From a virus, in the IMG/VR virus record IMGVR_UViG_3300023301_001182, positions 28,164 through 92,163 of that record: 64,000 nucleotides of DNA, one strand, 5' to 3'. This document shows, in pieces, positions 11,982-44,309 of this stretch. The notes under the pieces were generated by a model. The model saw only the letters and a program-made list of their open reading frames with translations, did not search any database and had not been told where the DNA came from. The translations under genes and the position numbers were made by a program. How positions within the stretch are numbered: the stretch's first letter is position 1; each line of letters begins with the position of its first letter.

Positions 11982-14900
11982 CTATCCACATTTACTTGAA
12001 CCACAATCTAGGCATCTTGAACACCCTTCTTCAAATATTACATTATTACTGCCACATGAGCTACATGTAGTAGAAGATTTTGAACCATTTGGAATAAATG
12101 TTTTTAATACCTTTGCTATTGCAAAATTAAATGAGAATAAACTACCACTAGTTTTATTTAGGTCATCTACTATATAATTAATACCTCGTCCATGTCTTAA
12201 TGAACCTGATATTAATCTAGTAATTATTTCTTGCTCTTCGTTCATTTTACCAGTAATAATACGATGTCTACTATTATCACCTTCTCCAAGAAATACATAA
12301 TTACCACTACCTTCTTTTAATATAGAACCTTTACCTACTTTAGTGCCACCTAAATAAGCAAAGACTTCATAAGGTTTATCATCCATTAATCCAACAAATA
12401 CACTATACTTTTTATCACCAGCAGCAGTAATAAACGCTTCACCTGTTACTTCTTTAGGGCGTTTTATACTATTATTAGTTGAAAATGTATCATTTTTAGA
12501 ATTATCAGTTATTAGAACTCCACTTCTAGAACCATCTCTGTAAACAGTGATTCCTTTAGTTCCTTTTTCCCAAGCCATTTTATAGATTTGAGAAACAGTT
12601 TCTTCTGATATATCTTTTGGTAAATTTATTGTAGATGAAATACTATGTGAAATATACTTTTGAATAGTAGATTGCACATTTACTCTATCTTCCCATTTAA
12701 TATCATTTGCTGTACATCCATACCAAGGAGACGTTTTAAAGAAATTATCTGTATCTATTTTTGAATACCATGATTCAAAAGATTCATTTGGATATTTATT
12801 TTTATATTTAATAAATAACCAATCTTGAAATTTAGGATGTAATACTTGAAATTCTTGCCAAGTATCTCCCATTTCATCAGTAAAATCTACCTTAACACCT
12901 TCATTATTAGCATTAATCTTTTTTCTACGTGTATAAAATGGTTGAAATAATGGTTCAATTCCAGATGTAGTTTGTGTCATTAAACTTACTGTACCAGTCG
13001 GAGCGCATTTGTTATGTATAAGTTCTTTATCTTATACTCTCCTCTTTTCAAAGGAGTATCGGACTATATCATCATCCTTAGTAGGATGCTGGATTTTCGT
13101 GGGAGAGATTATTGTTAGGCTCACTCTCCTAGTCTCTGAACCTTCTAAACTCTTTTAACCTAAGTTTAGCTTGGCTGCTGATTAACATGTTTTACCACAT
13201 TATTACAAAATTGTATAAATTCTTTGTTATTTAAAATGTTTTTCATAATATTAACTTTTTTATCTAACCATTGAATATTACCTTCAATATAACCTTTAGA
13301 AGAGTCTATTCTATCTAATGATGCATTAAATATATTATAATTAATATTTCTATTTCCATTTTTAATATTTGTTATTGGTATTGTTTTATCTTCTGGTCTT
13401 AATATAATTTTTTTACCAGATAATGCACATTTATTATTTTGTTTATTAAATATATTCCATGCGTAATCTAAAGATATATCAAAAACTATATTTCTTCTTT
13501 TAGCACTATATTTATAATGATTAAATAACATCTTAGATAAATCACCTATTCCCTGATGTGAAGGAGAAAAGTCTTTTGAATGCATTTTATTTAATTTAAT
13601 ATTATTTAAATATTTTTCTTTATTAGAACATACTTTACATTGTCCTACTTGATTTGATTTTAATATATCAGCCCTAATAAATTTTTCATTTCCACATTTA
13701 CATTTAACTAACCAATAAGACTTTCTGTCTTTTGTAGTAGCTATATTAGTAGAAATTACTGTATAATTTTTAAATATTTTACCAATAACTGGGATTTCTT
13801 TTTTATGTGCCCCACACACAAGAATAAATTTATTATTTTTCATAAGTGTACCGTTTGGTGCAAATATACGAAAAATAAGTTTAATTACCAAACATTTTAG
13901 TAATTATTTTATAATAATTTTTGTGATAAAATTTAGCTTTCCAGCAATTTATCCAATTTTTCAAAGTATATTACTATACTAAGCCGCCATTGACGGTGCT
14001 CCATGATACATTTCTACGTCCAAAAGTCATCATCCTAAAAGCTTGTTTAGGAAATTCACTTAATATAAAATTATAAAAATCATTACCACCTTTATCTTCA
14101 TATGAACCACCTTCATTTGGATACTCTAACTTGTTATCCCATCCTTCAAATGTTCCTCTTAAAATAGCTAGGTCGATAGTACAATCTAGCTCAGATTCCA
14201 TTTTAGTGTACATTATAGAGTCTATAATCTTATTTGCTTCCTCTGAACCATACTTTAAACCTAATGCTGCTAGAACGTCTCCTAGAGCTGTAAAACCTAA
14301 ACCAGTTCTTCTACTTGATAAAGCAGTTAATCTTATTTTCTTCCATAATGCCATTTCTGTAAACTTCAGCATCATTGGTTCTGGGTCCATTTCAATCTTT
14401 GCAATGATTCTATCAATATGTTCAATGTCTAAATCAATAAGATTATCACTAAGTCTCATTGCTTCATAGTTGATTTCATAAAAATCATCAAGATTAAATT
14501 GTGCCTCTTTAGTAAATGGTTTCTCTACAAAGTTATACAAGTTCACTGCTATTAATCTACATGCGTCATAAGGTTGCATTCCTATTTCACTGCATGGATT
14601 TGTAGTAACTTGTTTAAATTGTGGATAAACTCCATCTGGACTGTAATTAACCATCTTATCCCAGTACATAAGTCCTGGTTCTGCTACACTATGTGCAGAT
14701 TTAATGATTTCATCCCAATATTCCTTAGCTTTAATCTTTTTAATATATACAGAATTACCTGTATCTCCATCATAAACACTATATGATGTATTATATTTAA
14801 ATGAGTCCCATCTTGGTTGCTTACTGGCTTCTTCTGTAGTAGCCCAATAAGCATTATCAATATTAACAGTTGTAGGAAATCTTAAAATATAATCTTCATC

Positions 14901-29087: not shown

Positions 29088-29718
29088 ATTTATTATCTGT
29101 TAAAAACTTATTCATTGAAGTTCCTCTAAATTTTAACAAAGAATCTACATTCTTTGGTATAATATCACATATAACTAAAGAATGGTTTCCCCAAGAATTA
29201 TAAGTTGTATCTATAGGCATAACTATATTCTTGTTTACAAGTTCCATTAAAAAATACAGAGGGTCAGTTATAATTCTATCTTTAGCTCTTAAATCTATAA
29301 AAAATTGTTTATGATTAAAAACACATGGTTTATACCAAATCATTCTTAAAAAGTTTAATAATACTAAATTATTATAATATTTACTTTCACTTATTAAATC
29401 ATATCTAATATATGTTTCTTTAAATTTAGTTACAATTTTACATGGTGTTATCATATTAATAATATCTACCATAGCTTTTGTAGCTGCTAAAGAGTTAATA
29501 TTGGTTCTAAAATCACTAATATAAATTTGCTTAATTGATGGTCCTTTATAAGTATAGTGTATTAAACAATTATATTTATTTATCGTTCCATCAGTATAAT
29601 TAACTATAGTTGGGTACATTAAGCTATACCAACAAGCACTATTTTTAACCTTTACTAACTGTTTTTCTCTGCCAATATCTATATGATAATGACAACTATA
29701 ATGACTCTCTGTTCTCAT
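29080..29718 (-). CDS. Hypothetical protein
   Basis: 212-aa ORF in the operon. Confidence 0.6.
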   Translation of the reverse strand: MRTESHYSCHYHIDIGREKQLVKVKNSACWYSLMYPTIVNYTDGTINKYNCLIHYTYKGPSIKQIYISDFRTNINSLAATKAMVDIINMITPCKIVTKFKETYIRYDLISESKYYNNLVLLNFLRMIWYKPCVFNHKQFFIDLRAKDRIITDPLYFLMELVNKNIVMPIDTTYNSWGNHSLVICDIIPKNVDSLLKFRGTSMNKFLTDNKYG

Positions 29719-29732
29719 TTTTTAAATTTTAA

Positions 29733-30062
29733 TTATTCTTCTTTTGTAAAGTTTTTATCTTTAAACCTATCATCTAGGTCTTTTCTAAATAAATACATAT
29801 AAGATAAGAACATTGCATTACACATTATATGTCCTACGTGGTCTAAACCACTTTCCTTATCTTTATCTACTCCATCTGAAAAGGAATTTATATGTCGTTG
29901 CATGCTATCTAAAGTTTCAGAATATTTTAGACCTTTTCTCCAATTATGGTCATCATATTTTTTAGCACCAAACATTAGTACTCTAACTAAAGGTTCTAAT
30001 GCTTTCCAACTAACTAACCCCCATCTTAATTTCCCTTCATTCTTTCTTTCTCCTAATTCCAT
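29733..30062 (-). CDS. dATP/dGTP diphosphohydrolase-like protein (DUF5664-type)
   Basis: GKLRWGL, FGAKKYDDHNWRKG, DKESGLDHVGHIMCN. Confidence 0.8.
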   Translation of the reverse strand: MELGERKNEGKLRWGLVSWKALEPLVRVLMFGAKKYDDHNWRKGLKYSETLDSMQRHINSFSDGVDKDKESGLDHVGHIMCNAMFLSYMYLFRKDLDDRFKDKNFTKEE

Positions 30063-30064
30063 AT

Positions 30065-33000
30065 TTACCTTCCTGTTGTAGACTCAATGAAATTATAAAC
30101 CTCTTTTATGTTAGCATTATCATAAGGTAAAGGTAGTTCTCTAAAAAAGTTTACAGCTCCATCAAAGAATAGTGGACAAACTGTGCCACCACCACCACTT
30201 CTACCACCAAGTATTTCTAAAAACCTTATATTATCTCTAAAAAAGGTTATATCATATCCTTGGTACTCTCTTATCTCGTGTCTAAACGGACTAAATAGTC
30301 CTATTATAACATTAGCATCCCGTTGAGTTAATTTGCAATCGCCAAGACCATCTAATGAAGGTTTTAATCGACCTACCTTCATATTCTCGACTGATTCTTG
30401 TGCACTTGCTTGTTGTTGAATAACAACTGGAATGTAGTTATATTTATTCCTGAGTCTTAAAAGATAATCTGAAGACAATTTAACAATAGAAGCATGTAAG
30501 CTCATTTTGTGTCCATTTTCTTCTTCTGTAGAAATTAAACCTACATGGTCAATAAAGACCATAACATACTCTTCTGGATCATTAGGTTCATAATAATCAT
30601 CAATCTCTGTTAATGTACCTTTGATATTGATAGTTTTTTTGTACTGTGTCCCATTGGCTTGTGCATAGGAACGGACAAATTTATAAATACCTGTAGGATT
30701 TCTAATATCATCAATGAACTCTACTATTTCTTCAATCTTCTTGAAATATGGTTCATATTTTGCTATTAACTCTAAAATTTTAATATCTAATATTTTATCT
30801 GCTTTAGTACTTCTAAGGTCAGTAGGAGGAATTCTTACCCCTTCTTTAACATATATAATGTTAGAGAATGCTGATAACATTTTCTCCTCCTTAGACATCT
30901 CTAAAGTAAAATAAAATATCTTCAATCTAATGTTTAAAGATTTATCAATTACTTGTTGAATAGTATTATACAAAAATAGCCAATCAGCTATTTGAGTTTT
31001 CAATTTTGTTATTTCTAACGATTACTAAAATATTTCTTATTTTCAAAAAATTTTTTAAGTTCTATACCAAATTCATCAACTCCTCTACGTGGAGCATATA
31101 AACGCCAGTAACTTCCTGTGTAATTAGTAGTAGAATCTCTAACTCTATATACTTGTTTGTTTATATCATTACAAAACATACCAACTAAATTATCAAGTGA
31201 CATTACAGTATTAAAAAACTCTTCATATGTGGCTTTAGGATAATAATTTAAACAGATCCTGTATAAATCTCCCATAGATCTATTGCAATCCTTTCCACAT
31301 TGTTTTCTGTTACTTTTAAGATGATATGTTTTATTACTGTATATATATCTTGATAATAATAATCTTACAAAATTCTTAAAAACTTTAGAATAAATTTTAT
31401 GTTTTGTAATGCCAGCTTTTGAAAGGTATAATATTCCTCTTCCTCTTAATTTTATTTCTATTTTATTAAATTTTTGTTTCATATTTTAGAAATTTAGAAA
31501 GTTAAGTCATTTCTACTTAACTCTATAATTTAATATCAATTTTTAATGAATCAAATAGTTTATCAATATAAGCAGCATCATATTTAGTATCCTTTGTACT
31601 TCTACCATAGTTAAATGTAACAGAATTTACATGACCTGGTATAATTTTACTAGCCCATATAGATATAGATGGCTTTTGACATTTCTCATAAAAGCTATAA
31701 AATATTACTTTATTAATACCACCACATACTCTTGCTCTGAATTTAGTTTCATATAAAGCTTGTAATACCATCTTTTCAGTTGCTCCTTTTTGTTTATAAT
31801 ATTTAAACAAATCATCAAAGCTTCTTCTATCATAGATCCCTTTGTCTTTTTTAAATAGAGTACTTCTAAAATACCTCTTATGATTTACTTTATTTAATAA
31901 ATCTTTTTTTAACTCCTTTAAATTCATCTTTAATTAATTTTTATTTTTATAGTTCGGACTATCTCATCAACCTATCTATGTATTACACATTTACAGTCAT
32001 AATCATGATGTCCTTTTAATGCATCATTATAACATTCTGTACAACATTGTATACCTTCTGTTATAATTGTTGCAATATTATCACAATCTGTACATAGTAT
32101 AGGTTGCCCATTGTTAGTCTCTACGTCCTTTTGAATTTTTGATATTGTATTATCTATAGTTGATTGAAATCTATCATCACAACTATATCCAGCTTTATAA
32201 TAAGCTAAACCTTTCATAATATTTTCAATATTTCTTTTATTCAACTGTGACACGGGATTGCCTTCTTTTTTTTCAGTTTCTACACCGTTTTGTAAAGCAA
32301 GTCTAACTCCTACTGAAACTCCTAGTTTATAATCATCCCACCATTTAGGACTTCCTAAAAATTTAGTTAATCGTTTTACTTCTTTCTCAAGTGATAGCAT
32401 AGGATTGCTTTCTGTTTTTTCCATTATAAATCATCTCTAGTTAAGTTCTTAATATACATCTGTAAATCTCCATTAGGATAACCTACCCTTCTTGCAAAGG
32501 TATGTTTGTATTCAAATCCTAATGTTTTTAGATTGGATCTTAATAAGTGCTCATTTGGAGATACTATTACAAAGACAGCTGTCTGGCCTCTACCATATGT
32601 ATAATCTACTTCTTTATTAATAAGCATTTCCATAGTAAGCCGTTTTAACTTAGCTTTAAATTCATCTAAAGTTGTGTCATCTCCTACATTATTTAATTGA
32701 CATAATGCACAGCATGCTGTTGTTGTTTTTTCCATTATAATGTTTTTTTAAAAAAGGGTTTCCCCGTTAGCTAATTATTTTTAACAAATACTTTTTTAAC
32801 CAAGACTTAGAAGTAAATTCTCCAAGTTTAATTAATTGTTCAATTGTTAAAATTCCTTTTTTCTTTCTTTTTAATATTATTTCTTTTGCTATTCCATCTT
32901 GTTTAAATCTTGCAACATAGCCATCTCTATTTCTGATTTGATATTTAGTAAAATATGTTGCAAAATATTGGAAGCCATAACCATAACCTGTTGGTATTGC

Positions 33001-34775
33001 TACACAAGATATTAATATAAAATATTTTGCTAAATTTTCAACATATAATTTGGATGTTACATTTATTGAAAATGTTACTTTCTGAGCTGCATGTAATACT
33101 TTAGCCACTCTTTCTATAGCTTTAGGTGTACACAGTGATGCAAAACTTGATACTTGATCTAAGTAACAATGTTTACAATTACCAATTGCGTCTTGGTAAA
33201 AAATTGTACTATAATCTGAAAGATACACTTTATATACATCTGTGTCACACATATTTGGAATACAGTCTTCTAGTCTTATATTTATCATTTTTTCTTAATT
33301 AACCCCCATTTCTGGGATTCTGAGTTCAATTACATATTACTATGCAAAGGGGCAAAATCTACCTACTTTCGTTTATATTCCACATAAGACGTAACTCTTA
33401 TATGCGTTTATGATAAATAGTATATATGGTAGGTCTATCCTCAATAACTTTTAAGATATTGGTTATTTTCCACGAGTACTGTACCTGCTTATACTTCTTA
33501 ATACTATTTACTTTAACTGCTATATATTTCTATATAGACTGGACTATATCTTCATCTACTTGAGATGGCTTCCATTTCCAATACCATTAACTTGTATTGT
33601 ACGTGCTCTATTGCACTAGTCTCTGAACGTTACTATTTCTAGTCTTCGCTGCTGATTGTCTTATATAAAAAAGACACTATATTAGTGTCTTAATTATACT
33701 TAGAGTTTCCAGCAATTAAAAAGCTAATCATCTAGATGTCACCATCTAGCGTAGCAATTAAATTGTTATTAATAAATATTGTTTTTTAAATTTTTGTTGT
33801 ACTTTTATTGCATAACTTATACTAGGTCTGTGTGTTTTAAAATATTCAGCACATTCTTTTAAAGAATTAAATTCCATAATTAATTCTCTTGTACTATAAT
33901 CTAATACTTGGACTTTCTTATATAAATATTCCATATTTTTAGTATCTTTTTTATAAGGAGATAATATTTCTTTATAATCATATGACCATAAATAATTACC
34001 TGCTTTTTTATAAGTACCATTAATATATCTACATATAGATGATTTAGAAATATCACACTCAGATGAAGCTTCATTAAGGCTATTATATTTACATATATAT
34101 TCTCCATTTAAAGAGTACTTATATATAACTTTAGTAGCTAATATTATTTCACCTATTTTAATTTTGTATTTCCTTGTATTAGATTGTTTAAGTCTAGACT
34201 CTTTAGGAAGGATATTTCTATCTACTTCTAAAGTAATATTATATAAAGGTTTTAATATATCTATATAAAATTGTTCTCTACTTATTAACTTATTTTCTTC
34301 ACATTTTTCTAATATATAAAAATTAAAGTCATTCTCTGTATTATTATTCCAAGAATTTTGTAATAATATATTACAATGCTTTAATTTTTTTAATGTATAA
34401 AAATGATTATATAACCTAGTTCTAATGTTTTTAGAACTACCTATATATTGTTTACCATTTTTAATATTTATTATGCAGTAAATACCACTGCAGTTATAAT
34501 CTTTTGTTATTTTCTTCATAATTTATATATTTATACAAATATACGAAATTAAATTCAATAATCCTAATTTATAACTGCTAATTTTATAACTTTATTTATT
34601 ATAACTAATTACTATTCGCTGTAATTAAATAATATTTACCTTGCTCAATGCCAGGTAATTCATTTTCAAACCGAGGTAACCCCCATGGTATACAATTAAT
34701 TTGCCCATTAAGTAACCTCTGTCTCTTTTCTATGATATTGTCATAGACTCTTGTATATAAACTTGTTTCTTTCAT
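30065..34775 (-). CDS. dnaB: DnaB-like replicative helicase in three exons (34775..34611, 33369..33361, 31000..30065; about 369 aa spliced)
   Basis: Exon 1 ...IPWGLPRFENELPGIEQGKYYLITANS, micro-exon AAA GTA GGT (KVG), exon 3 KTQIADW...FTLEMS...FIDHV...VIQQQ...QRDANVIIGL. Joining restores Walker A ANSKVGKT in frame. Confidence 0.9.
31015..31482 (-). CDS. Intron cargo ORF 5: basic hypothetical protein, paralog of 31523..31927
   Basis: RSMGDL...FCNDINKQVY; bracketed by an AUUUCUAA/UUAGAAAU stem. Confidence 0.7.
   Translation of the reverse strand: MKQKFNKIEIKLRGRGILYLSKAGITKHKIYSKVFKNFVRLLLSRYIYSNKTYHLKSNRKQCGKDCNRSMGDLYRICLNYYPKATYEEFFNTVMSLDNLVGMFCNDINKQVYRVRDSTTNYTGSYWRLYAPRRGVDEFGIELKKFFENKKYFSNR
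31523..31927 (-). CDS. Intron cargo ORF 4: basic hypothetical protein
   Basis: RSFDDL...VCGGINKVIF; bracketed by a CUAUAA/UUAUAG stem directly after the S element. Confidence 0.7.
   Translation of the reverse strand: MNLKELKKDLLNKVNHKRYFRSTLFKKDKGIYDRRSFDDLFKYYKQKGATEKMVLQALYETKFRARVCGGINKVIFYSFYEKCQKPSISIWASKIIPGHVNSVTFNYGRSTKDTKYDAAYIDKLFDSLKIDIKL
31972..32424 (-). CDS. Intron cargo ORF 3, overlapping the Q, R and P8 core elements; Cys-rich C-terminus
   Basis: 150-aa open frame coupled to the upstream ORF by TAATG; CTDC...CCTEC...CKC. Confidence 0.55.
   Translation of the reverse strand: MEKTESNPMLSLEKEVKRLTKFLGSPKWWDDYKLGVSVGVRLALQNGVETEKKEGNPVSQLNKRNIENIMKGLAYYKAGYSCDDRFQSTIDNTISKIQKDVETNNGQPILCTDCDNIATIITEGIQCCTECYNDALKGHHDYDCKCVIHR
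32424..32735 (-). CDS. Intron cargo ORF 2: hypothetical protein in the P5 loop
   Basis: 103 aa; starts just after the P5 5' strand; LKTLGFEY...LQMYIK segment is only weakly GNAT-like. Confidence 0.65.
   Translation of the reverse strand: MEKTTTACCALCQLNNVGDDTTLDEFKAKLKRLTMEMLINKEVDYTYGRGQTAVFVIVSPNEHLLRSNLKTLGFEYKHTFARRVGYPNGDLQMYIKNLTRDDL
32767..33288 (-). CDS. Intron cargo ORF 1: hypothetical protein in a stem between P3 and P4
   Basis: 173 aa; bracketed by GGUUAAUUA (33304-33296) and UAAUUAGCU (32777-32769). Confidence 0.7.
   Translation of the reverse strand: MINIRLEDCIPNMCDTDVYKVYLSDYSTIFYQDAIGNCKHCYLDQVSSFASLCTPKAIERVAKVLHAAQKVTFSINVTSKLYVENLAKYFILISCVAIPTGYGYGFQYFATYFTKYQIRNRDGYVARFKQDGIAKEIILKRKKKGILTIEQLIKLGEFTSKSWLKKYLLKIIS
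33361..33369 (-). other. 9-nt micro-exon of dnaB encoding K-V-G of Walker A
   Basis: AAAGTAGGT, preceded by the terminal G of intron 1 (33370) and ending in the U of the intron 2 5' splice site. Confidence 0.87.
33758..34519 (-). CDS. Intron-encoded GIY-YIG homing endonuclease with NUMOD1-like C-terminal repeats
   Basis: SGIYCIINIKNGKQYIGSS, REQFYID, YN; two SL(N/K)E(A/C)(S/A)E helix-turn-helix-type repeats. Confidence 0.92.
   Translation of the reverse strand: MKKITKDYNCSGIYCIINIKNGKQYIGSSKNIRTRLYNHFYTLKKLKHCNILLQNSWNNNTENDFNFYILEKCEENKLISREQFYIDILKPLYNITLEVDRNILPKESRLKQSNTRKYKIKIGEIILATKVIYKYSLNGEYICKYNSLNEASSECDISKSSICRYINGTYKKAGNYLWSYDYKEILSPYKKDTKNMEYLYKKVQVLDYSTRELIMEFNSLKECAEYFKTHRPSISYAIKVQQKFKKQYLLITI
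34536..34567 (-). promoter_or_regulatory. Bacteroidota-type promoter inside dnaB intron 1
   Basis: TTAGGA then TATATTTG, 24 nt start-to-start, upstream of the GIY-YIG ATG. Confidence 0.65.
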
Positions 34776-34777
34776 AT

Positions 34778-35386
34778 TTAATTTAATTTTGAAGTCCATT
34801 CATCTCTACTAGGTAATCCTATCTCCTCTATATAAGCAGATAATCTGGATGACTCTTCACGATTGTTCTCTTGTTTAAATATAAAATAATCAGCACGTTG
34901 TAAGAATCTATAATCTCCATGTAAGCTGTCAATATAAATATCAACTGCTTTTAGGATATCATCGAATGTATATTTAGAGTTTTCTTTCATCCATCTTGTA
35001 AGTTTAATTTCACATGACTTTGGACTACCCATAGAACCAGCTTTTAACCCTTTCCATTTGTCTCTAAATAATTCAATTCTACCATCAATCTCTTGATTAA
35101 TAGTTCTTTGTGATCTTTTAGTAGTCTTCTTAGAAGGCTCTAAAGCATCAGGTATTTCTACTGTTAAAAACTCTAATAGTTCTACAGATTTCTCCCTTAA
35201 TATATATTTTGTCTTTTCTTCATCTGTTATAATTTTTATTAGTTTTTCTCTTTGTAATTTTTGTAAGTCTATATTAGCTATATTAACTTCTTTCTCTTCA
35301 AATAAGTTATATAGAAATAAGAGATCTTCTACAGAAATATTGAAATCATTTAGTACAGTAAAATTTAGTACTAAGTTTTTTCTCAT
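34778..35386 (-). CDS. Hypothetical protein, possible replication initiator or helicase loader
   Basis: Directly upstream of dnaB exon 1. The function is inferred from position only. Confidence 0.45.
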   Translation of the reverse strand: MRKNLVLNFTVLNDFNISVEDLLFLYNLFEEKEVNIANIDLQKLQREKLIKIITDEEKTKYILREKSVELLEFLTVEIPDALEPSKKTTKRSQRTINQEIDGRIELFRDKWKGLKAGSMGSPKSCEIKLTRWMKENSKYTFDDILKAVDIYIDSLHGDYRFLQRADYFIFKQENNREESSRLSAYIEEIGLPSRDEWTSKLN

Positions 35387-35543
35387 TCAATATATTTAAA
35401 ATTCATTTAATTTTTCGTCTATTAATGATTCAGATAATTCTTTATCGATCATACCATCACCTTTACAAAATCTGCATAGTTTAAGATACTTTCCTTTAAT
35501 TACTTCTTCACCAACCCCTAGACAATTGGGGCATTCTACTAGT

Positions 35544-43907: not shown

Positions 43908-43930
43908 CTCGTTTAGAGTATTGTTATTTG

Positions 43931-44309
43931 TGGACCTGCGCGGAGTCGAACCGCGGTATCCCAACATATTTCATAATAATTCTTATACAGCTTCACGTTT
44001 GTTTAAATTCTTTACGCTAGAGTAGGAACGATTGGATTACAATCGAATCTCCACCACTTGGTTTTTGTAGAACCTAGAAACTAGTGTTGCCTTTGTTTTT
44101 ATTGCTTAGGCTGCAAATGCTAACTCAACAGTTAACTCATCAGAACCTTGTTCTGCAGTTACTGTATTATTAAGTATAGAATGAACCACACTCATGTTAG
44201 CGACGATTTGATCTGTGTTGTTTCCATTTAAGAAAATTCACCTTAGTTTACAGTTATCTCTCTGGCTGTTCATTATTAATCTACATATCAAGGCATTCCA
44301 GTCAAGCCC
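43931..44309 (-). ncRNA. ssrA: tmRNA with predicted 39-aa tag (44225..44106)
   Basis: 5' GGGCUUG pairs with 3' CAGGUCC-A and includes the G3-U70 alanine determinant. T arm CGCGG-UUCGACU-CCGCG. Internal frame ends ...ELAFAA*. Confidence 0.9.

Follow-up and report, generated by a model that had tools for sequence, protein, structure and literature searches.

Phage group I introns are, in the textbook picture, small elements that carry at most one homing-endonuclease gene. Those described from bacteria and phages contain either no open reading frame (ORF) or a single one for a homing endonuclease, which usually lies in a loop and sometimes overlaps the core (PMC3984707). In fungal mitochondria, the mL2449 intron of rnl holds rps3 (PMC5626475), and the cob intron of Exserohilum turcicum contains up to five putative endonuclease ORFs, an arrangement called unprecedented in a 2025 database paper that reports multiple endonuclease ORFs only there (PMC11835236). 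Here we analyse a 64,000-nucleotide (nt) stretch of IMG/VR virus record IMGVR_UViG_3300023301_001182 (hereafter, the window), in which five ORFs lie between pieces of a replicative helicase gene. We put at about 85% the probability that positions 31001 to 33360, read on the minus strand, are a true group I intron, in a form specific to this lineage, within the gene for a DnaB-type helicase, and that its ribozyme serves as a scaffold for accessory genes. The initial annotation of this stretch had proposed as much; its observation is confirmed, and its interpretation, which is largely right apart from the route of spread, is partly supported.

The C-terminal part of the helicase (30065-31003; all coordinates of window features given here are on the minus strand) shares 52% identity with DnaB of Cellulophaga phage phi14:2 and 42-47% with helicases of the crAss001 type, and by these identities the source of the 92-kb contig is placed as a marine crAss-like phage (Crassvirales, Steigviridae-like, near phi14:2). 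For the crAss-like phages, the survey by Yutin et al. (2021; PMC7886860) detected group I introns through endonuclease domains, in core genes of replication and structure and at high density in some groups. A survey of this kind would let endonuclease-less multi-gene introns escape, and a term search of the paper returned no mention of a DnaB intron. Term searches of the literature found no description of multi-gene, endonuclease-less phage introns.

In the minus-strand order, the window presents a replisome-organiser-like ORF, a 64-amino-acid (aa) helicase N-terminus ending in ANS, a GIY-YIG/NUMOD ORF, five ORFs that could not be annotated, and a 312-aa helicase body beginning (L)KTQ. We collected 70 related IMG/VR loci by means of the helicase body and mapped both exons on each. 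In about 35 of these loci the gene is uninterrupted, the ANS codons running through AAAGTNGGT directly into AAAAC (A-N-S-K-V-G-K-T, the Walker A motif). About 20 other contigs, including phi14:2, hold a homologous insert at exactly the same point, site B, which falls between the G and K codons of Walker A (ANS-KVG/KT); these inserts measure 761-3574 nt and carry 1-6 ORFs, the extremes being locus L016 (761 nt, one ORF) and locus L011 (3574 nt, six ORFs). Related phages thus offer both the intron-less alleles and the variable cargo that the initial annotation had proposed to look for.

In the window itself, exon 1 (34609..34799; 63 codons) ends in YYLITANS (AAT AGT) and aligns to the N-terminus of the intron-less helicases, with a match to positions 314-362 of the DnaB-like phrog_19. 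The 9-nt micro-exon AAAGTAGGT (33361..33369), which encodes K-V-G of Walker A, is contiguous with both flanking exons in the approximately 35 intron-less loci, and exon 3 (30065..31000) starts with AAAACT, has the DnaB identity given above and extends from KTQIADW to the stop codon. The site-B intron between micro-exon and exon 3, 2360 nt long and of what we term the W-type, is recognized by its insertion site, conserved blocks and covariation, and the limits first proposed for it, 31001 and 33360, are exact, with AAAGTAGGT before and AAAACT from 31000 after.

It might be argued that there is no intron at all, i.e., that the helicase is broken or made in pieces, that the five ORFs between the pieces are ordinary genes, and that the helices described below are chance pairings or inter-gene hairpins. 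The record of phi14:2 (L001; NC_021806, 1217-4942) invites such a reading, in that it lists g024 to g029 as separate genes: DnaB of this phage is split by a 2616-nt W-type intron, g024 being exon 1 plus KVG reading on into the intron, g025-g028 intronic and g029 exon 3, and the RefSeq record joins PolB, yet keeps g024 and g029, and also g025-g028, apart. However, a break between the G and the K of the P-loop leaves neither piece with a Walker A motif unless the exons are joined, which supports splicing, and the exons are still 60-93% identical to those of IMG/VR relatives. Together with the RNA evidence below, these facts make the absence of an intron scarcely credible.

If the segment is a group I intron, its transcript would fold into a P1-P10 core and excise by two transesterifications. 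Splicing in vivo would have to remove a second intron as well, since the upstream neighbour at site A (33370..34608, boundaries good to about 2 nt) is itself a group I intron with a GIY-YIG/NUMOD endonuclease ORF (33758-34519; Pfam GIY-YIG, 7.8e-11). Removal of both would yield ...ANS-KVG-KTQ..., with predicted joined exons AATAGT, AAAGTAGGT and AAAACTCAA, the counterpart in phi14:2 being AAAGTGGGT joined to AAATCACAA.

The RNA anatomy of the window agrees with this scheme. The group I order P7-P3'-P8-P8'-P7' is present, and every helix named in the initial annotation lies where it had been placed. In the internal guide sequence (33357-33351), GCC pairs with GGU of the 5' exon as P1, just as first claimed, and UUUU pairs with AAAA of the 3' exon as P10; the claim that the whole of AGAUUUU pairs with the 3' exon does not stand. 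P2 is the hairpin UUGCAUA-GUAA-UAUGUAA (33347-33330), and P3 is a helix of 4 base pairs (bp), CUCA (33324-33321) with UGGG (32110-32107). The W-type form is characterized by two extra hairpins between P3 and P4 and by extra P9 hairpins, the former being P3.1, CCCA-GAAA-UGGG with a GNRA loop (33316-33305), and P3.2, GGUUAAUUA/UAAUUAGCU (33304-33296 with 32777-32769). P4 (CGGGG/UCCCG; 32766-32762 with 32257-32253) and P5 (CCCUUUU/AAGAAGG; 32758-32752 with 32267-32261) are connected by J4/5, AAA, and J5/4, CAA. The 5' strand of P6, (G)UGUC, follows the 3' strand of P4 (within 32249..32267), and its 3' strand, GACG(U), and then J6/7 precede the 5' strand of P7 (within 32099..32127). P7 is G[A]GACUA/UAGUCC with a bulged A (32121-32115 with 31961-31956), P8 is CAACCUAU/AUAGGUUG (32106-32099 with 31975-31968), and J8/7, AUGAGA, lies between the 3' strands of P8 and P7 (within 31947..31975). 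Downstream come P9, CUAUAA/UUAUAG (31952-31947 with 31528-31523), the hairpin P9.1, GUUAAGU-AGAAAUG-ACUUAAC with a GAAA loop (31521-31501), and the stem P9.2, AUUUCUAA/UUAGAAAU (31493-31486 with 31018-31011), which is seen in the window sequence only, L004 having the small hairpin CUUUUAGAAAUAAAAG in its place. The conserved 3' end, AACAAAAUUG (31001..31010), closes with the terminal G at 31001 and corresponds to the intron-terminal motif (G/A)UAACAAA(A)UUG of most W-type site-B introns.

Several of these elements lie beyond the first description, namely the 4-bp P3, P6, a P5 loop that holds ORF2 and the first third of ORF3, and a degenerate tandem copy of P4'-P6-P7 (GCAAUCCUAUG ... GUAGAAACUG; 32274..32408) inside ORF3 and the P5 loop. 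Copy 1 of this duplication has the ancestral P6 sequence and broken P4' and P7 pairings; copy 2 is the working one, with P6 remodelled from the GCCGU/ACGGU of relatives to GUC/GAC. The duplicate gives the ORF3 protein two NPxxSL...NGVET repeats, which explains why this ORF is longer than its relatives.

Across the site-B inserts, short non-coding blocks keep their order and the ORFs between them vary. The block AACGGGGAAAC (P4 5'/P5 5' region, 32752..32766) is common to all W-type introns, with AACGGUGAAAC as the form in the S-type introns that Rfam recognizes (see below), and GACAAUCCCGUG, from the P5 3'-P4 3'-P6 5' region, is kept in all relatives. Among 23 distinct W-type relatives, standard pairs fill 98.1% of the cells of P7 and P8, compared with 88.1% after shuffling (0/500 shuffles) and 14-42% when the partner strand was slid; P7 pairs in 100% of cells and P8 alone in 96.7%. 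The last pair of P7 is AU in 14 of these sequences, GC in 8 and UA in one, and 5 of the 8 pairs of P8 show double changes. For P1 and P2 combined, pairing reaches 88.7% against 77.2% after shuffling (0/500; 15 relatives), 7 of the 9 pairs of P2 changing on both sides; P1 cells pair in 96.7% of cases, and the splice-site U.G pair is present in 15/15 site-B introns. P3 occurs in seven compensatory types (CUCA/UGAG, UUCC/GGAA, CUCG/CGAG, CUCU/AGAG, CUCU/GGAG, CACC/GGUG and CAUC/GAUG), the window having CUCA/UGGG. By inspection, compensatory variants are also found for P3.1 (CCUA-GAAA-UAGG, CC-GUAA-GG, CUUGAG...CUCAAG), P3.2 (GGUUACAU/AUGUAGCU and GGUUAUUA/UAAUAGCU), P9 (CUGCAU/AUGUAG, CUACAU/AUGUAG) and P9.1 (GUUAAAC, GCCAAAC, GUGUAAC, GUUCAGC and others); P4 and P5 were judged by inspection of conserved blocks. 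That non-coding blocks should be better conserved than the ORFs, and should covary as helices, is not expected if five ordinary genes merely separate two pieces of a helicase gene.

Support from covariance models comes by way of a homologue of the S-type, natural compact introns having been used for this purpose. At site B, the compact L016 intron gives a full-length match to Rfam RF00028 with 67.1 bits (gathering score 50; E = 3.8e-17), and it shares with the window intron the insertion site, the guide sequence, the P2 GUAA hairpin and the blocks AACGG(G/U)GAAAC, GACAAU(C/A)CCGUG, GUAGAGACUA and GAGAUAGUCC-CUAUAAA. The window is 85% identical over 27 nt to this Rfam-positive core in the P8 3'-P9 5' region, and a blastn-short comparison of the L016 core with the window gave matches only at the P7 and P7'-P9 blocks. 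The neighbouring intron is supported in a similar way: the ORF-less site-A intron of L005 scores 99.5 bits with RF00028, and those blocks of the window site-A intron that lie beyond the GIY-YIG ORF share 85-93% identity with it. Filter settings matter in such searches, in that a 65-kb multi-locus Rfam scan missed the L016 intron that a narrow scan found.

Several observations weigh against a functional ribozyme of this kind. Rfam cmscan returned no group I match for the whole window, for 29500-35500 or for 31930-32290, at gathering or relaxed thresholds, a result that favours the absence of an intron, and a scan of the compact W-type core of L072 also gave no match. The search with group I covariance models suggested in the initial annotation is therefore divided in its outcome, Rfam missing both the window and the compact W-type core and accepting, as a full-length group I intron, the compact homologue at the same site. 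P1 of the window is limited to 3 pairs, since GUA stands where most carriers have GUG; the remodelled P6, with its GUC/GAC core, is backed by one sequence only; the degenerate duplicate of P4'-P6-P7 could offer a competing fold; and it is unusual for a group I intron to have two hairpins in J3/4. Moreover, one and the same RNA molecule cannot both have a folded core and be translated across ORF3, which reads through the core. Taken with the points in its favour, we regard group I membership of the window intron as confirmed, so far as sequence comparison reaches, by the shared insertion site, the blocks shared with the Rfam-positive S-type and covariation, and the claim of a group I intron inside the replicative helicase gene is borne out by its full anatomy, its same-site homologues and the roughly 35 intron-less alleles.

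The five ORFs had been described as spread over several peripheral loops, and their mapped positions, in P3.2, P5, P8/core, P9 and P9.2, agree. ORF1 (173 aa, family F6; 32767..33288) fills the P3.2 loop. ORF2 (103 aa, family F2; 32424..32735) occupies the P5 loop and ends within it at the start of ORF3 (150 aa, family F0; 31972..32424), the first third of which lies in the same loop and the remainder of which runs through P5', P4', P6, P7, P3' and P8, with a Cys-rich end encoded by the P8 loop and its TAG stop within the P8 3' strand. ORF4 (134 aa, family F7; 31523..31927) fills the P9 loop, its TAG stop lying in the P9 3' strand UUAUAG (31528-31523), and ORF5 (155 aa, family F1; 31015..31482) fills the P9.2 loop. 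In four of the five cases the stop codon falls in or at the 3' strand of the enclosing helix, ORF2 being the exception. The same helices are plain, ORF-free hairpins in relatives, P3.2 in L012, L028, L066 and L072, P5, P6 and P8 in L072, L081 and L098, and P9 (as CUAUAUGGUGACAUAUAG) in L005, L008, L010, L012 and L018, and the ORFs are therefore insertions into loops. In the proposed structure, five co-oriented genes would sit in loops pointing away from the core (P3.2, L5, L6/L8, L9 and L9.2). No terminator-like sites were found within 31001-33360, a point in favour of an intron, and a promoter scan gave chance-level results only.

All-against-all clustering placed ORF1-5 in the recurrent families F6, F2, F0, F7 and F1, with F3, F5, F8, F9 and F11 found in relatives only. 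Pfam, PHROG and NCBIfam searches of the five ORFs gave no match, and the same profile searches do detect the neighbouring GIY-YIG protein and a LAGLIDADG_2 protein encoded in a loop of relatives. The statement that none of the five is a recognisable homing endonuclease is upheld by the lack of any family match in Pfam, PHROGs, NCBIfam and PADLOC; a weak PADLOC hit of ORF3 to PDC-M02B (E = 2.9e-4, 17.8 bits) was taken as noise. The AlphaFold model of ORF1 (predicted local distance difference test score, pLDDT, 81.8) has GNAT acetyltransferases as its top Foldseek matches (probability 0.9-1.0) and VIA Z scores of 6.1-7.6 over 92-111 residues, nearly all of the top 50 rows being GNAT-superfamily enzymes, although a word-index search found only 4 related proteins. 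ORF2 has 211 homologues, and its Atlas structure matches are to GNAT clusters only (ten clusters; template-modelling score, TM, 0.59-0.65). By these models, ORF1 and ORF2 have GNAT-like folds (the GNAT fold being a mixed beta sheet with a beta4-alpha3-beta5-alpha4-beta6-beta7 core) at middling scores, a resemblance of fold that does not imply enzymatic activity, and relatedness of the two to each other was not supported by hhalign. The ORF2 profile also matched designed armadillo-repeat proteins in PDB, with E down to 1e-10 and no single stretch passing, which we judged an artefact of repeats or composition; the ORF1 and ORF5 profiles found nothing in PDB.

The model of ORF5 (pLDDT 69) gives VIA Z scores of 5.0-6.1 over 60-80 residues, almost all of them to winged-helix domains, with Foldseek E at least 0.12, so that ORF5 may be winged-helix-like, and ORF4 likewise by relation, family F7 being distantly related to F1 (hhalign 90.7%, E = 1.2e-6). 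In ORF3, the only residues kept across relatives are those encoded by core RNA (DNPVPSLD and NGVETNxEQP); the loop-encoded parts are variable, the part from the P8 loop being Cys-rich in many members, and the compact versions in L072, L081 and L098 are without loop inserts. Close pairs show purifying selection on ORF2 and on the F1 family, with ratios of nonsynonymous to synonymous substitution rates (dN/dS) of 0.1-0.3 (0.11-0.31 for ORF2); for ORF1, ORF3 and ORF4 this ratio is uninformative, synonymous sites being saturated and ORF3 also overlapping the RNA constraint. The cargo would consist of small phage genes that evolve fast, two of them GNAT-like, two winged-helix-like and the fifth running through the core. 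Two points on the cargo count against the proposed explanation: the acetyl-CoA loop Q/R-x-x-G-x-G/A was not seen, on inspection of the ORF1 and ORF2 family alignments, after the CCALCQ or NCKHCYLD strand, and the fold matches are middling (Z 5-7.6), giving no firm indication of function.

An alternative is that the cargo, above all F1 and F7 (ORF5 and ORF4), represents new or degenerate homing endonucleases or DNA-binding remnants, in which case this would be an ordinary mobile intron that was repeatedly invaded by selfish genes. The minimal, 761-nt intron of L016 has F1 as its one ORF, at the usual position of endonuclease genes; F1 is also a large, multi-copy family (1843 representatives at 50% identity in a library of 1.8 billion, without a Pfam or PHROG family, and often 2-3 copies per locus), and the cargo evolves much faster than the helicase. 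The free-standing F1 genes next to the target gene in intron-less genomes match the pattern of free-standing endonucleases and that of collaborative homing (PMC3984707). In addition, family F9 is a LAGLIDADG_2 endonuclease (Pfam 3e-34), which is found in another loop of related introns, in L007 (5764-6387), L012 (5804-6427) and L101, and is not in the window; the intron family is therefore not endonuclease-free. We noted that in W-type introns this gene is inserted just after P7, replacing the usual P3'-P8 context. The five window ORFs nevertheless show no nuclease family or motif, the models of ORF1 and ORF5 match GNAT and winged-helix folds and not nucleases, and the residues conserved among 123 diverse F1 members (Y, T-Y, C, Q-C, R-S, C, K and G) include no invariant D, E or H. 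The predicted F1 fold is only winged-helix-like, no nuclease-domain fusions occurred among the longer homologues tested, and most intron-less genomes whose upstream sequence is long enough have an F1 gene immediately before the helicase (L039, L056, L050 and others), though some do not. The order and orthology of the F1a, F3 and F1b genes across clades resemble those of vertically inherited genes, and the site-B intron follows the helicase clades. On balance, we consider an origin of the cargo as endonucleases rather unlikely.

The interpretation of the ribozyme as a scaffold for accessory genes is better served by the occurrence of the same families outside introns. In profile searches over all ORFs of all collected loci, the families of ORF1 (F6), ORF2 (F2) and ORF5 (F1), as well as F3 and F8, were also found as free-standing genes, and in relatives whose helicase is uninterrupted, members of F1, F3, F6 and F8 come immediately before it, in a block between the replisome-organiser gene and the helicase gene. 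The intron-less orders are F1a-F3-F1b-helicase (L039, L040 and L057), F6-F1-F8-helicase (L050 and L051), F6-F1-F3-helicase (L067) and F1-F3 (L060); the intronic orders, between exons 1 and 3, are F1a-(F5)-F3-F1b (L031, L035 and L045) and F6-F2-F0-...-F1 (L005, L007 and the window). The F1a-F3-F1b block therefore has the same order in both settings, and identity within each of these orthologous groups is 36-51% regardless of context, F1a and F1b being 27% identical to each other. The F2 copies in L028 and L083 lie away from any W-type core. That such families occur as ordinary genes could be taken to favour the absence of an intron, but the free-standing versions are without ribozyme blocks: no core motifs accompany the free-standing cargo in L039, L028 and L083. 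Since the cargo families may be either intronic or free-standing, the ribozyme would be a neutral scaffold for accessory genes inside an essential gene, an idea already present in the initial annotation and now strongly supported by free-standing F1, F2, F3, F6 and F8 and by the preserved F1a-F3-F1b order. The change could have run in either direction, the intron having engulfed the cargo or having been lost with the cargo kept; a search for a relic second copy of exon 1, which re-insertion of a spliced helicase should have left behind if intron-less genomes had come about in that way, found none. As a separate observation, the position of F1 upstream of a DnaB-type helicase is the place held by helicase loaders in some other phages.

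Introns of the same type are not confined to DnaB. With a 17-nt core motif, we located W-type cores with F0, F2, F3, F9 and F11 cargo in related contigs, where they split the genes for PolB (L087; about 2.7 kb, five ORFs), an SNF2 helicase (L081, L094 and L096), a DnaG-type primase (L084 and L093) and a second P-loop ATPase (L086 and L088, the former with two such introns in one gene). It is conceivable, though we would give it slightly less than even odds, that group I ribozymes are general gene-nesting scaffolds in this clade, with the accessory block enclosed so that exon 1 now lies upstream of it, the ribozyme domains interleaved with its genes, and up to six genes nested in DnaB, PolB, SNF2, primase and another ATPase, an organisation undescribed for any virus. 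If so, expression of the accessory genes would be coupled to how essential replication genes are transcribed and spliced.

How the site-B intron has spread can be judged from the helicase tree. One clade is occupied by W-type introns throughout, save for a single loss in which the cargo went as well (L015, L029 and L032), and S-type introns occur in two subclades of the other; site-B presence needs 5 changes on the tree, compared with a shuffled mean near 20 for the label 'none'. The agreement of subtypes with helicase clades points to mostly vertical descent. The initial annotation had suggested that the intron instead rides with its GIY-YIG neighbour, the endonuclease cutting an intron-less allele and repair from exon 1 and exon 3 homology copying both introns. 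The endonuclease is indeed encoded only 9 nt away, a spacer so short that repair of an intron-less recipient from a donor with both introns must copy both; a site-A intron, whether with GIY-YIG or ORF-less, was always accompanied by a site-B intron (7/7 in the sample), and trans-homing of endonuclease-less introns is documented in T4 (PMC2790892; PMC3984707). However, 13 rows of the tree have site B only (L004, L008, L010-L013, L016, L018, L028, L045, L066, L072 and phi14:2), as against 6 with both. The site-A intron is sporadic, such that sister pairs differ in A but not in B (window/L004, L035/L045 and L031/L065), and it is ORF-less in L005 and L024. Genomes with both introns hold the B subtype of their own helicase clade (W in one, S in the other), which suggests that the site-A intron arrived in alleles where B was already present. 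Most carriers of B being without A, and B subtypes tracking the helicase clades, spread by co-conversion is not supported in the form proposed; nothing in the data requires it, and it strikes us as quite improbable.

Insertion itself is concentrated in this part of the gene. Three insertion sites fall within 10 nt among the relatives, A after AATAGT, C after AAGGT and B after AAAGTGGGT, and a terminal G ends every insert at each of the three; the same 9-nt micro-exon between two introns recurs in L005, L007, L023, L024, L031 and L035. The Walker A codons of this helicase can be called an intron hot spot (window 33361-34608; loci L002-L073). L034 (5293-7000) has a related intron with the same P2 and the same 3' end, GUAACAAAUUG, positioned 4 nt upstream of site B. 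Because its insertion site, AAG GU., offers the same GGU to the guide sequence, this case hints that pairing with the guide sequence may set the insertion site.

Two further features of the stretch deserve mention. At about 13000-13600, a ribonucleotide-reductase-like gene is probably interrupted by a third group I intron, which has the core CAGCAGCCAAGC...GUUCAGAGACUAGG...GAUGAUAUAGUCC and contains an HNH-like ORF; the exon resumes with ...APTGTVSLMTQTTSGIEPLF. A phage transfer-messenger RNA (Rfam RF00023, 51.5-58.2 bits) is found at 43928-44309 and is conserved in at least two related contigs, L016 (142-510) and L028 (675-1052).

The present intron family departs from the textbook picture: its members are up to 3.6 kb long, their separate loops accommodate as many as six genes, most of them not endonucleases, and they recur in several replication genes. 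Annotation pipelines and surveys keyed on endonuclease domains or on Rfam miss such introns; in the reference genome of phi14:2, the two helicase exons and the four intronic ORFs are still annotated as genes unrelated to one another. The family amounts to a natural experiment in how introns acquire cargo, in how translation is reconciled with ribozyme folding when one ORF runs through P4-P8, and in whether introns can act for a phage as neutral docking sites for accessory genes, and three insertion sites within 10 nt, along with a 9-nt micro-exon, provide a compact system for the interplay between introns.

Among known systems, the nearest in setting are the introns of T4 td, nrdB and nrdD(sunY) (IA2) and those of Twort, SPO1 and Pf-WMP3, which likewise place a group I core in an essential phage gene of nucleotide or DNA metabolism (PMC3984707, PMC3428280). 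As in T4-type phage introns, the insertion interrupts a catalytic motif of high conservation, the peripheral loops contain ORFs, some of which reach into the core, and there are a U.G splice-site pair and a terminal G. Unlike those introns, which have no ORF or one for a homing endonuclease, the window intron has five ORFs at five places, and its relatives up to six, none of those in the window being a recognisable endonuclease; furthermore, W-type introns reach 2.4-3.6 kb and have extra hairpins between P3 and P4. Collaborative homing or trans-homing (PMC2790892, PMC3984707) is comparable in that genes may be free-standing beside the target or intronic, and in that an endonuclease-less intron may lie beside an endonuclease-bearing element, but the genes that alternate here are without known nuclease motif or activity, and their order and orthology look vertical. 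With fungal mitochondrial introns, the present one shares the property that a host gene can live in a group I loop and that several ORFs per intron are possible; the fungal case, however, is organellar, its multiple ORFs are endonuclease genes, and it possibly involves nested introns, whereas here the host is a phage and the cargo, predicted to be GNAT-like and winged-helix-like, alternates between intronic and free-standing positions.

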